Origin: a virus
Virus record (IMG/VR): IMGVR_UViG_3300046501_000460
Coordinates: 1 to 64,000 of that record
Length of the DNA stretch: 64,000 nucleotides
Reading direction: 5' to 3' (one strand)
In this document: positions 44,580 to 48,722 of the stretch, one piece after another
Layout: each line of letters opens with the position of its first letter
Numbering within the stretch: position 1 is the first letter of the stretch
Program-made: the position numbers and the translations under genes
Notes under the pieces: generated by a model
Databases searched by the model: none
The model's input: only the letters and a program-made list of their open reading frames with translations
What the model was told of the DNA's origin: nothing

Positions 44580-44613
44580 GATGTTCCCTTTCCCTACAGA
44601 AAAAATCACAACC

Positions 44614-45462
44614 ATGTGGCTCAAGAACGCAACCATCTACGGGATCTCCCCCAAAGCACAATTCCCCATCGAGCAGCTGCAGGCTGCTCGATTCGTTCCT
44701 GTCGACAGCCTGCAGCTGCAGTCGGTCGGCTTCTCGCCAGTCCGCGAGGGCGAACTTGCCTACAGGCAAGGTAAGCACATCCTGCTGCGTTTCACGATCG
44801 AGAAGAAGCACATCCCGGGCTCGGCCGTAGCTGTGCTGGTGGAAGACAAGGCCGCGGCGCTGGAGAAAGCGCAGGGCTTCCCGCCGGGCAAGAAGGCGCG
44901 CAAGGAGCTCAGGGAGCGTGCGATCGACGAACTGCTGCCGCGCGCGCTGTCGACCCGCCGCACGACGCAGGTCTGGATCGACCAGGACCAGCACCGCATC
45001 GTGATCGATTCGGCCTCGAACTCGACCTGCGACGAGATCATCAAGGCGATGATCAAGCTGTTCCCGACGATCGAGTTCCAGGACGTCAGCTGGCCGCGCG
45101 CCAAGGTCGTGACGGCGTGGGTGGCCGACGAGGAGCCGGACGACTTCACGATGGACGATTCGGTCGTGCTGCAGTACCCGGGCGAGAAGGGCAAGCGCGT
45201 GAAGTTTGAACGCGCGACGGCGCAGGGCGCGGACGTGATCAACCACCTGACGGCCGGCGCCCACGTCGACTCGGTCGCCATGACCTTCTCCAGCCGCCTG
45301 TCGTTCGTCATGACGGACAACATGCGCATCCGCCGCATCAAGGCGCTGGACATCGTGCAGGAGGGCCGCGACGCTGAGAACGACGACCGCTTCGACAGCG
45401 ACGTCGCGCTGATGACGCGCGAACTGGGCTGCCTGATCGACGCTCTGGTGCGGGAGGCGTGA
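44614..45462 (+). CDS. rdgC: Recombination-associated protein RdgC
   Basis: MWLKNATIY, SVGFSP, EKKHIPGSAV, ELLPRAL and RFDSDVALMTREL motifs. Confidence 0.9.
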   Translation: MWLKNATIYGISPKAQFPIEQLQAARFVPVDSLQLQSVGFSPVREGELAYRQGKHILLRFTIEKKHIPGSAVAVLVEDKAAALEKAQGFPPGKKARKELRERAIDELLPRALSTRRTTQVWIDQDQHRIVIDSASNSTCDEIIKAMIKLFPTIEFQDVSWPRAKVVTAWVADEEPDDFTMDDSVVLQYPGEKGKRVKFERATAQGADVINHLTAGAHVDSVAMTFSSRLSFVMTDNMRIRRIKALDIVQEGRDAENDDRFDSDVALMTRELGCLIDALVREA

Positions 45463-45770
45463 TGGGCATCCGTAAAATTGGGCCCGTGACCGAGGTCACG
45501 CCCGGTCAGTGGATTCTGCAGACCCCGCTGCTGAACGACCACCTCGTGTCCGAGCCGCGCGAGGTTATCCGCCGCTCCGGCAAGCGCATCTACTATCGCA
45601 ACCGCCACGGAGAGGACGATGGCACCTACTGCAGCATCGCGACGGTAGTGGCCCTGTGCGACACGAAGGCGGATGCGGACACCGTGTACGCCGTCAGCAA
45701 GTCGCAGTTCGATGCCCTGCGCGCGGTGCGTCACGACCACCTCGGCCGTCTCAAGGCGCTGGTCGCATGA
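45459..45770 (+). CDS. Hypothetical protein
   Basis: Coupled to both neighbouring genes. Confidence 0.6.
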   Translation: MMGIRKIGPVTEVTPGQWILQTPLLNDHLVSEPREVIRRSGKRIYYRNRHGEDDGTYCSIATVVALCDTKADADTVYAVSKSQFDALRAVRHDHLGRLKALVA

Positions 45771-47134
45771 CCGCGTACTACAACGAATTCAACCCCGCGG
45801 CGGCCGAGTGGCTGCGCAACCTGATCGCAGAAGGCCTGATCGCGCCGGGCGTGGTCGACGAAAGGAGCATTGCCGATGTCACACCCGGAGACCTTGCCGG
45901 ACTTGACCAAGTACATTGGTTTGCCGGAATCGGAGGCTGGTCCCTCGCTCTCCGACTTGCAGGCGTCCCTGATAGCCGTCCAGTCTGGACGGGCAGCGCG
46001 CCTTGCCAGCCTTTCTCCTCGGCAGGCGCAGGCGGCGGGTTTGATGATGAGCGGCACCTGTGGCCCGCTCTCTTCCACCATGTCAGCGTCCGACGACCTG
46101 CAGAAATCTTTGGAGAGCAGGTTGCAAGCAAGCCTGTCGACCTGTGGATCGACGCTTTACAAGCTGACCTGGAAAGCGTGGGTTACGCCGTCGGGGCGGT
46201 TGCGTTCCCGTCTGCGGGCTGTGGCGCACCGCACATCCGAGACCGCTGCTACTGGGCTGGCCGGCTGGGTAACGCCGACGTCACGCGACTGGAAGGATTC
46301 GGGAGCGGACATTCGACCCCGCTCGGACAATGGCAAGGCTCGACTGGACCAGCTGCCACGCCAGGCGAACCTGTGTGGCTGGCCGACGCCGATCGCGAAG
46401 GAGGCCAAGGCGGGTCTGCACTGCTCGAATCAGGTGACGGTGAGCATGGCGGCCCAACTGGTTGCGGACGGTCCGGCCCGGTTGCTGGTTTCTGGCGAGA
46501 CGCTGACTGGCTCAGTTGCCGGGACGGCAAGTGGCGGCCAGTTGAACCCATCCCACAGCAGATGGTTGATGGGCTACCCAAAAGCCTGGGACGATTGCGC
46601 TCCGAACAAACCCACGCGTTCGCGAAAGAGGTGATGGAGTATGCCGAGGCCTGCGAAATCGACGCCAGAGAAGCGCTGCACAATGTGTGGATGTCGCTTG
46701 CAGAGGAGACGCTTCGGCGAACGTCTGGAGGACTTTCAGGCGTTCATGAAGCGCCAGTTTTGCTCGCTTTCCTGCGCCAACTCGCGTACGAAGGGTGGGA
46801 CGTCGCGCAGGGCTTACCAAGCCCAAGCCCGCAAACTCCGGAAGGAGGCCTGCGAGTGTTGTGGGAGCGTGAAGCTGCTGCACGTGCATCACATCAACGA
46901 GGACTGGTCGGACAATCGTCCGGAAAACACGCAGACGCTGTGCGTGTTTTGTCATCAGTTCTGGCACGCCACACACAGGCGTGCTGGGGTGAAGCCTTCG
47001 ACCGCCATGCCTCCGATGCCGTTCCTCTCATCGGTGACGCAAGGTCTCGGGTGATTCGTCTGCACGGCTACGGCAACGCCATTAACCCGTACGCCGCGGC
47101 CGCCTTTCTCAAAGCATTTTACGGAGTAAACTGA
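45767..47134 (+). CDS. C5 DNA cytosine methyltransferase, alpha subunit (M.EcoHK31I type)
   Basis: Motif [36 protein letters not shown] and X LHGYGNAI are in this frame; motif IX is absent from it. Confidence 0.9.
45876..46634 (+). CDS. C5 methyltransferase beta subunit, in the alternative frame (start uncertain)
   Basis: +1 frame inside the alpha gene; W(V/P)TP..RDWKD and LDQLPRQA repeats and motif [17 protein letters not shown]. Confidence 0.8.
46641..47054 (+). CDS. HNH endonuclease nested within the methyltransferase alpha ORF
   Basis: CTMC, FCSLSC and CECC...[26 protein letters not shown]; own RBS (GAGGTG/GGAG) before ATG 46641. Confidence 0.85.
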   Translation: MPRPAKSTPEKRCTMCGCRLQRRRFGERLEDFQAFMKRQFCSLSCANSRTKGGTSRRAYQAQARKLRKEACECCGSVKLLHVHHINEDWSDNRPENTQTLCVFCHQFWHATHRRAGVKPSTAMPPMPFLSSVTQGLG

Positions 47135-47476
47135 ATGACCGCCGGAATCCTGGGCCCCTGTGCCCGCCGCGTTGTCCGCTGCACCCTGATCACGCCCGGC
47201 GGCCACGCCATCATCGGCGAGAACTGGTGCATGAACCCACAGCCCGCGTGCCCGCGCGCCGAGGGCGAAGGGTACGAGAAGTGCCAGACGATCTGCCATC
47301 AGGTCGGCCACGCCGAGGAAGTCGCGGTGCTGCTGGCCGGGCCGTCAGCGGTCGGTGCCCACGCCTATGTCGAGAACCACACGTACGCCTGCCGCAACTG
47401 CCAGGAAGTCCTGTTTGCTGCCGGCGTCGCCGCGCTGACGATCGGCGCGCCACCTGATCGGAGGGAAGATGTTTGA
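47135..47476 (+). CDS. dCMP deaminase-like zinc protein
   Basis: GHAEE and ACRNC zinc motifs. Confidence 0.8.
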   Translation: MTAGILGPCARRVVRCTLITPGGHAIIGENWCMNPQPACPRAEGEGYEKCQTICHQVGHAEEVAVLLAGPSAVGAHAYVENHTYACRNCQEVLFAAGVAALTIGAPPDRREDV

Positions 47477-47692
47477 CAACGAAATTTTCAACGCAGGCCT
47501 GCACCATGTGGTTGCGGGTCTGCCGGGCGCGCTGTTGCTGTGGATCGGCGTCTGGATGGGGCGCCGCTCGCGCGACATCGAAGTCCACGGCTACAGGCTG
47601 ACGAACAGGTTCCTCGAGAACCTCGCGGTCATGAACGCGAAGATCGCGGACAAGGCACTTGCCGAGATCAGCAAGTCGCGGAAGGATACTTG

Positions 47693-48127
47693 ATGCCCTC
47701 GACCCCTGACTTCAACGTCGCCCGGGATCTCGAAAAAGTGCGCGCCTTAACGGCGCGCATTTCGTATCCCCACTGGATGCATCGGCCCGGGACCTGGACG
47801 TGGACGCGCCCCGACGGCATGTCGCAGGGCTTCTCGTCGATGATCTACACCCAGCCTGGCCTGTGCAATCTGCTGTGGCTGGCGATGGATCTGGACCGGC
47901 CGCCCGAGGCGTACAACGCGCTGGCCAACCCGCTGTACATGCTGCTGGTGGTCAATCGCGATGCGAAGCTGCGCGGCGAGCCGCTGACGGATATGGCGGC
48001 CCTGCTGACGCTGCGCCAATTCCACGACCTGCTGCCGGAATCGACAGCGGCCGTGAACCCGGTCGAGCACGCCTACCCGCTGCTACGACTGCTTGCGGAA
48101 AGGAGGCTCGATCATGCTCACCCTTGA
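47693..48127 (+). CDS. Hypothetical protein
   Basis: Coupled TGATG start. Confidence 0.55.
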   Translation: MPSTPDFNVARDLEKVRALTARISYPHWMHRPGTWTWTRPDGMSQGFSSMIYTQPGLCNLLWLAMDLDRPPEAYNALANPLYMLLVVNRDAKLRGEPLTDMAALLTLRQFHDLLPESTAAVNPVEHAYPLLRLLAERRLDHAHP

Positions 48128-48722
48128 GCAGGCGCAGGCTGCTGGACTGCGGCGTTTCTTTACGGGTCAGCCCTGCCGTAATGGCCACGCCGCAGAGCGA
48201 TATGTCGCTGGCGGCGCATGCGTGCAGTGTGCAGCGGTTCGAATGGCGAAAGCGTCAAAAAAGTGGAAGGACGCACATCGAGAGTTGATGCGCCAGGCCA
48301 GCAAATCATGGAGGGGTTCCAATGCAGATAAGGTGAGGGCGACCAACGCTGCCTGGGCCGCTGCGAATCCGACCCTGAAAGCCGAGATGCACAGGGCCTG
48401 GCGAGAAGCTAACCCGGAGTATCACCGTCGATACTCTGCCGCACGCCGTCAAAAGCAGTCCGAGGATCAGCTGTCACGAGGCATCGTGGAGAGACTGTGG
48501 CAGCTCCAAGCTGGCCGCTGCGCCTGCCCCTGCCGGCAGCACCTGCTGCGGAATGATTTTCACATTGACCATATCGTCGCGCTCTCCCGTGGCGGGCGGA
48601 ACATCGACAGCAACGTGCAATTGCTAACTCCGGAATGCAACCTGAAGAAGTACAACAAGGACAATTCGGAATTTTTCGTTGAGCAGGCTGCGAGATTCGG
48701 AGGGCGGCATGCTCACACTTGA
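48114..48722 (+). CDS. HNH homing endonuclease
   Basis: FFTGQPCRNGH..ERYV...CVQC and HIDHIVALSRGGRNIDSNVQLLTPECNLKK. Confidence 0.9.
   Translation: MLTLEQAQAAGLRRFFTGQPCRNGHAAERYVAGGACVQCAAVRMAKASKKWKDAHRELMRQASKSWRGSNADKVRATNAAWAAANPTLKAEMHRAWREANPEYHRRYSAARRQKQSEDQLSRGIVERLWQLQAGRCACPCRQHLLRNDFHIDHIVALSRGGRNIDSNVQLLTPECNLKKYNKDNSEFFVEQAARFGGRHAHT

Follow-up and report, generated by a model that had tools for sequence, protein, structure and literature searches.

Homing endonucleases are usually thought to persist within genes only through RNA or protein splicing. Free-standing phage homing endonuclease genes and the HNH or LAGLIDADG endonucleases borne by introns and inteins either are located between genes, interrupt the host gene or undergo splicing, and HNH open reading frames (ORFs) are common in phage group I introns. 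A different arrangement is that of a nuclease hidden out of frame in its host gene. The ShiLan domain and the Pacc40 insertion are HNH endonucleases hidden in this way in DNA methylase genes of actinobacteriophages (Gosselin et al. 2023, PMC9957025; Arsenault, Gosselin and Gogarten 2025, PMC11855218), and phage Applejack has a further such pair, gp54/gp55 (PMC12613952). M.EcoHK31I of E. coli HK31 (Lee, Kam and Shaw 1995) is a heterodimeric C5-methyltransferase, according to the description of it in PMC2836561. The locus presented here is a phage C5-methyltransferase (C5-MTase) gene with an alpha ORF, a beta ORF in another frame and an HNH nuclease gene. It lies in a stretch of 64,000 nucleotides (nt), positions 1 to 64,000 of IMG/VR record IMGVR_UViG_3300046501_000460, which is called the window. 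The locus is most likely a two-frame, M.EcoHK31I-like C5-MTase that was invaded by a mobile HNH element and whose alpha subunit is read straight through the nuclease gene. As part of the same explanation, alpha would carry the catalytic domain and motif X, and beta the recognition region and motif IX.

The locus resembles the ShiLan-type loci in several respects. The host frame has no stops, the zinc-finger HNH occupies another frame, intron and intein signatures are lacking, the flank is repeated, and for the in-frame peptide a helical loop is predicted with low confidence. Applejack (PP978873.1) was the published ShiLan-type example used for sequence comparison. Its gp55 is a distant homologue of the HNH family of the window (hhalign 97%, E 1.1e-10, 96 columns comprising the zinc module and HNH core), and the annotated coordinates of gp54 and gp55 give the same +1 relation. 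In contrast, the ShiLan-type host is an N6/N4 amino-methyltransferase (PF01555), whereas the window host is a C5-MTase (PF00145) and, unlike ShiLan-type hosts, is itself dual-coding, with three products in about 1.3 kb. The HNH of the window starts directly after the beta stop, with an ATG that has a Shine-Dalgarno sequence, while ShiLan has GTG and no visible ribosome-binding site. The present family occurs in phages of Proteobacteria, Firmicutes and others, and ShiLan in mycobacteriophages; tblastn gave no mycobacteriophage match for the window nuclease. The principle of a nested out-of-frame HNH is already published (PMC11855218), and what is new is the dual-coding C5-MTase host, the three products and the HNH start by the stop of beta.

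By its described architecture, M.EcoHK31I has an alpha with motifs I-VIII plus motif X and a beta that lies wholly inside alpha in another frame and contains motif IX, which is like the arrangement in the window. Unlike the window, it has no nuclease insert as far as that description goes (PMC2836561). The beta of the window (252 amino acids, aa) also differs from the described one, since it overlaps nearly the whole of alpha up to the insert. With other homing endonucleases the locus shares a nuclease gene within a conserved host motif, a patchy distribution and divergent flanks of the co-conversion kind. It differs from them in that the host protein would be translated through the nuclease gene in another frame.

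The open host frame and the nuclease

With the nuclease as bait, 48 viral, 5 genomic and 49 metagenomic loci (25 of the 49 with full-length hits) and three GenBank phages were collected; the 5 genomic loci came from one narrow peptide pattern in a scan of bacterial genomes. In every locus with a hit across the nuclease (76 fetched, plus the window), the HNH ORF is entirely contained in a long ORF and has the same +1 relation to the host frame. The nested loci range in guanine plus cytosine (GC) content from 0.33 to 0.68, and the HNH homologues among the gathered loci are 30-76% identical. All eight hosts tested are PF00145 C5-MTases.

The host frame was counted for stops in 46 loci, its own terminator excepted, and contains none, against 3.3-18.5 per locus expected under synonymous recoding. 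The other frame of the same 46 loci has stops in the expected number. Loci at GC 0.33-0.51 are expected to contain 7-18 host-frame stops, and none was seen; 30 further loci have a host frame that is likewise without stops. The window alone has 0 alpha-frame stops against 3.5 expected when its HNH is synonymously recoded, with a probability of 0.017 for an open frame. Even where the HNH is broken by an internal stop, as in locus L010 (2741-3112), the host frame is open all the same. Comparison of these loci indicates that stops are removed from the host frame by selection.

An alternative is that only chance, in DNA rich in GC, leaves the alpha frame without stops over the HNH, with alpha in effect truncated or dead and the HNH an ordinary free-standing insertion. 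The window has a GC content of 63% and many other long alternative-frame ORFs in the ORF list, and its own probability of an open frame is not vanishing. This explanation is nevertheless barely credible, as all 46 loci are stop-free, including those at GC 0.33-0.51, while the other frame has its expected stops. Alpha also retains all invariant residues, including motif X past the insert, and the HNH identities exclude that the loci are near-copies of one sequence. Chance openness was rejected on the open-frame counts.

The nuclease comprises an N-terminal CxxC...CxxxC zinc module followed by a CxxC-HH-N-N-CxxCH-H core. Its ORF matches several PHROG HNH families (down to 6e-8), as well as Pfam and NCBIfam HNH entries. 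An alignment of 36 HNH sequences has 17 invariant columns rich in Cys, His and Asn, and keeps every zinc-binding Cys and all HH...N...N...CxxCH...H core residues. The ATG start is conserved in nearly all aligned members of the family. The AlphaFold (AF2) model has a predicted local distance difference test (pLDDT) score of 82.7, and its top Foldseek matches are mostly HNH nucleases such as T5 SciA, Cas5-HNH and McrA, although they are weak (E about 0.01).

The ratio of nonsynonymous to synonymous substitution rates (dN/dS) was obtained over about 100 pairs. The HNH frame has values of 0.1-0.3, against about 0.6-1.2 for the host frame of the same DNA and 1.1-2 for the third; the HNH of the window and that of locus L006 give 0.24. 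This suggests that the nuclease protein is preserved by selection and that alpha is mainly kept open, the host-frame peptide being by these ratios nearly free to vary. The earlier note on this DNA had proposed a complete zinc-finger and HNH gene in the +1 frame, and had asked whether the alpha frame stays stop-free across diverse HNH inserts, with dN/dS in both frames as part of the check. The gene is borne out by its family matches, invariant core residues and purifying selection, and the host frame does stay free of stops across the loci.

Two further observations concern nested nucleases elsewhere. At 601-918 of locus L135, the nested HNH has decayed by truncation. In phages phiKX1 and Staphylococcus phage CUB-EPI_14, the nested HNH is present and unannotated.

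The two-frame methyltransferase and translation of the nuclease

Alpha matches Pfam DNA_methylase (PF00145) at 2e-10 and phrog_363 at 8e-72. It keeps every invariant column of a 60-sequence alignment, motif X after the insert included, and motifs I, IV, VI, VIII and X are found at the positions that had been claimed for them. In the AF2 model the N-terminal domain has a pLDDT of 85-95 and the C-terminal helix one of 92, while residues 176-274 are disordered; beta has its conserved repeats in that stretch. The methyltransferase belongs to a very widespread phage family, including those of epsilon15, PMG1, BcepC6B and eiAU. The gene keeps about 70% DNA identity even across hosts of very different GC content.

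Beta matches phrog_1008 at 3e-29, a family annotated as DNA methyltransferase. Of the 80 closest IMG/VR relatives of the methyltransferase gene, 79 have a beta frame with 240-347 open codons, and the exception is one truncated locus. The control frame of the same relatives has open runs of 34-104 codons, never more than 104. Phage epsilon15, with about 50% GC, has the same pattern of an open beta frame. The beta alignment contains 19 invariant columns. Comparison of these frames indicates that the opening of the beta frame is more than chance, and that the alpha, beta and HNH reading frames are all real.

The start of beta appears to be embedded in alpha. The alpha segment VDERSIxDV is nearly invariant and encodes GAA(A/C)GGAG, followed 8 nt on by an ATG. 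Within this segment, 68 of 74 relatives use GAA for E, 64 use (A/C)GG for R, and 69 have the +1-frame ATG. For the Asp that precedes Val, 73 of the 74 use GAT, even though GAC is preferred in the gene as a whole (38% GAT); GAT at this codon yields the +1-frame ATG of beta. Because the embedded Shine-Dalgarno sequence and ATG are conserved, beta most likely starts at 45876. In the earlier note, a beta in the +1 frame reaching to 46634 had been proposed, and this part stands; the start is most likely ATG 45876 rather than TTG 45870. The likeness to M.EcoHK31I that had been drawn there is upheld by the open +1 frame, the conserved start signals and the invariant beta columns.

The assignment of motif IX is more tentative. 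Residues 222-238 of beta match motif IX of single-chain MTases weakly (hhalign E 0.01, 17 columns). A search of the beta profile against PDB sequences gave no match.

Two observations concern beta in relatives. The alleles L007 (2570-2815) and L110 (2500-2830) are about 98% identical elsewhere and wholly different in the GWPTP-repeat (recognition) region of beta, which looks like a recombination-borne cassette swap of specificity. In Pseudomonas phage PMG1 (L001, 1537-2405), the only annotated frame is that of beta, labelled 'DNA methyltransferase'; the alpha frame has an apparent interruption near its 5' end.

In the window, one stop codon (TGA 46632-46634) and two further codons separate beta from the HNH ORF in the same frame. 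In two-frame hosts with an intact junction, the stop of beta lies 0-6 nt before the HNH start, which is preceded by a purine-rich stretch (GAGGAA, AAGAGG). Single-chain hosts have an internal Shine-Dalgarno sequence for the HNH instead. The HNH is probably made by termination-reinitiation coupling to beta, as this spacing suggests. Such coupling would offer a concrete answer to a question left by the 2025 paper (PMC11855218), namely how the hidden nuclease gets translated. In loci L143 and L145 (each 2426-2546), the stop between beta and HNH is missing, and single ORFs of 528 and 504 codons encode a fusion of recognition subunit and nuclease.

Since the HNH is probably coupled to beta, and fused to it in some relatives, the nuclease might use the DNA-recognition region of beta. 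Methyltransferase and nuclease would then share a specificity subunit, as in a restriction-modification-like device written in three frames. This could account for the finding of the nuclease family only inside methyltransferase genes, and it is held to be rather improbable.

Insertion and mobility of the element

The insertion is defined by reference to the empty alleles L055-L057 and to the pair L110/L007. Relative to these, it brings the last ten codons and the stop of beta, the HNH gene and the flank's second copy, and the donor-derived tract probably begins at about 46547. The net gain of 465 nt, or 155 alpha codons, agrees with the roughly 150 residues by which the MTase had been said to be enlarged. 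The segment that is copied twice encodes, in empty alleles, both the tail of beta and the FPL...RVGRLR strand of alpha. At nucleotide level the flank repeat has z values of 5.6-6.0 in relatives such as L140, L144 and L006, in which the downstream copy is still legible as an old beta tail in the beta frame. In the window z is 1.1, which is not significant, and the repeat has decayed. The duplication of the flank claimed for the window is thus clear in relatives and, at nucleotide level, not significant in the window itself. It suggests that one copy serves beta and the other alpha. In the AF2 model the insert is predicted to form helices, at low confidence, that connect the disordered linker to the last helix, itself confident; this fits a tolerated loop.

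The element is scattered among MTase alleles. The insert is found in only 2 of the 80 closest alleles, and in 75 of the 80 the nuclease is absent and both frames are intact. In the tree of catalytic domains the HNH-bearing alleles are dispersed, so that at least 4 gains or losses are needed. The window clusters with three empty alleles (99% support) and is 82% identical to one of them, L057. Its HNH shares 71-76% identity with the HNHs of L006 and L140, two loci with MTases elsewhere in the tree. Comparison of the close alleles L007 and L110 shows the element present in the first and absent from the second, with about 98% identity save for the element and the swapped recognition region. The empty site in L110 is RLRA^YGNAI, within the coding sequence of motif X. 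Left of the insert, identity in this pair falls to about 65% over some 55 nt, which is what a co-converted tract derived from the donor would show. In single-chain MTase hosts, the same nuclease family is found just upstream of motif IX.

The preferred explanation, a two-frame MTase invaded by a mobile HNH element, can be set out as follows. An element of about 0.5 kb (net 465 nt) would have inserted just before motif X and given beta a new end and stop codon. The HNH gene would stand 6 nt past that stop in the frame of beta, its translation probably coupled to that of beta. The second copy of the shared 3' segment would keep both the end of beta and motif X of alpha complete. As the -1 frame of the element is stop-free, alpha could be read through the nuclease gene, and neither RNA nor protein splicing would take place. 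The 155 inserted residues would form a loosely helical loop, and the enlarged methyltransferase would remain active. To spread, the nuclease would cleave the motif-X coding sequence of empty alleles, into which repair would copy the element; this amounts to homing.

Removal of the insert by splicing has to be considered, since a group I intron with an HNH ORF, or an intein, would make the open frame irrelevant. The repeated flanks are in its favor, a feature that the ShiLan authors weighed as a possible intron signature (PMC11855218). Splicing is very unlikely, however. Over 45000-48000, Rfam gave no match at E<=1 and thus no known intron, and Pfam found no intein-type domain, DNA_methylase being the sole match in alpha. 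The residue after the insert is Tyr, not Cys, Ser or Thr. A spliced intron also needs no stop-free host frame, yet selection keeps one. Intron and intein were rejected on the Rfam and Pfam results.

The locus could also be a compact restriction-modification (RM) or addiction unit. Its HNH would be restriction-like and possibly guided by beta, alpha and beta would protect the phage DNA, and nesting would make the parts inseparable. The nuclease family is found only within C5-MTase genes, the HNH follows beta in the same frame and is fused to it in L143 and L145, and it has been under long-term purifying selection. These features notwithstanding, an RM unit is unlikely. The nuclease-free alleles, with both frames intact, imply that the MTase usually acts as an orphan. 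Occupied alleles are dispersed over the tree, and an empty and an occupied allele are nearly identical. The insertion site is a conserved motif, as with homing elements, and the family uses another site, before motif IX, in single-chain MTases. In L010 a decayed HNH lies within an intact host. Inheritance of nuclease and MTase as one unit is a criterion for type II RM systems, and here most alleles are nuclease-free. An obligatory RM unit was rejected on the scattered presence of the nuclease.

A domesticated HNH is a further alternative, in which the nuclease would serve the methyltransferase complex, or phage DNA metabolism, as an accessory part and would no longer be mobile. The fusions of beta and HNH in two relatives, the strong purifying selection on the HNH and its conserved start context are consistent with it. 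Against this stand the scattered distribution with its recent empty and occupied pair, the decayed copies in L010 and L135, and an HNH similarity pattern that conflicts with the MTase tree, in which L006 and L140 belong to other clades than the window. Domestication is therefore considered highly doubtful.

The earlier note had left the choice between a homing-type HNH that spares its host by overprinting rather than splicing and an RM or addiction unit. The first agrees with the open host frames, the purifying selection, the scattered presence, the nearly identical pair and the lack of an intron or intein family, with homing itself as the probable means of spread. The second is not supported, as most alleles of this MTase carry no nuclease.

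Several points weigh against the preferred explanation of an invaded two-frame MTase. Taken by itself, the window gives a modest open-frame statistic (P 0.017) and a flank repeat that falls short of significance. Since the nuclease served as bait in gathering the loci, and many of these are related, the 77 loci do not amount to 77 independent events. The alpha, beta and HNH products are known here from sequence alone, and the motif IX of beta hangs on the weak 17-column profile match. The host-frame peptide is nearly neutral, and the enlarged alpha could be impaired. Homing alone does not explain why the nuclease family is found only inside methyltransferase genes.

On the preferred explanation, the locus belongs to a large family, under selection, that would use a third route of persistence within genes, in which the host frame is kept open and a loop is tolerated. 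Here this route is taken within a gene that was already dual-coding. Some 0.4 kb would serve as nuclease gene and methyltransferase linker alike, and the two methyltransferase subunits would share another 0.75 kb. All three genes are mis-annotated by gene callers, with phiKX1, CUB-EPI_14 and PMG1 as examples.

Feature coordinates and neighboring genes

The window comes from an uncultivated phage whose genome, 87.6 kb with terminal repeats, is complete. The three ORFs claimed for the locus are all present in the ORF list at the expected coordinates (Table 1).

Table 1. Coordinates of the features of the methyltransferase-nuclease locus in the window
Feature	Positions	Strand	Description
Alpha ORF of C5-MTase	45767-47134	+	455 codons plus TGA; ORF list, Pfam, PHROG
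Alpha motifs			I aa 52-58; IV PCQPFS 79-84; VI-like GEQV 116-119; VIII-like HIRDR 156-160; X GYGNAI 434-439
Predicted beta Shine-Dalgarno and start	45860-45878	+	GAAAGGAG 45860-45867 and ATG 45876-45878, within alpha codons VDERSIADV
Beta ORF	45876-46634	+	252 aa plus TGA; alpha +1 frame; GW(P/V)TP repeats, motif-IX-like C-terminus
Upstream copy of duplicated flank	46553-46600	+	Beta frame there is the motif-IX-like end of beta
Net insertion relative to empty alleles	46604-47068	+	465 nt, 155 alpha codons, aa 280-434
Beta-HNH junction	46626-46643	+	Purine-rich AAGAGG, TGA 46632-46634, 6 nt, ATG 46641-46643
HNH endonuclease ORF	46641-47054	+	137 aa plus TGA; same frame as beta
Downstream flank copy	47021-47065	+	Runs into motif X; contains the HNH stop codon
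Alpha motif X (GYGNAI)	47066-47083	+	Directly 3' of the insertion

One DNA sequencing run, probably of the source sample, is listed as containing this sequence, and no RNA run is. Among the contigs of the DNA run, only the source contig was found at the locus, with no variant and no joint.

The locus lies within an early or replication region, with an RdgC gene before it and another HNH gene after it. The RdgC-family gene (44581-45462, +) has a Pfam match at 1.7e-68, and a 103-aa ORF lies between it and the methyltransferase. A 113-aa ORF (47135-47476, +) begins right at the stop of alpha (TGAATG). It has no Pfam match, and its HAEE...CxxC pattern recalls the zinc sites of cytidine/dCMP deaminases. 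The second HNH endonuclease gene (48093-48722, +) is free-standing (Pfam HNH, 2.7e-9), and the N-terminus of its product is similar to epsilon15 gp40.

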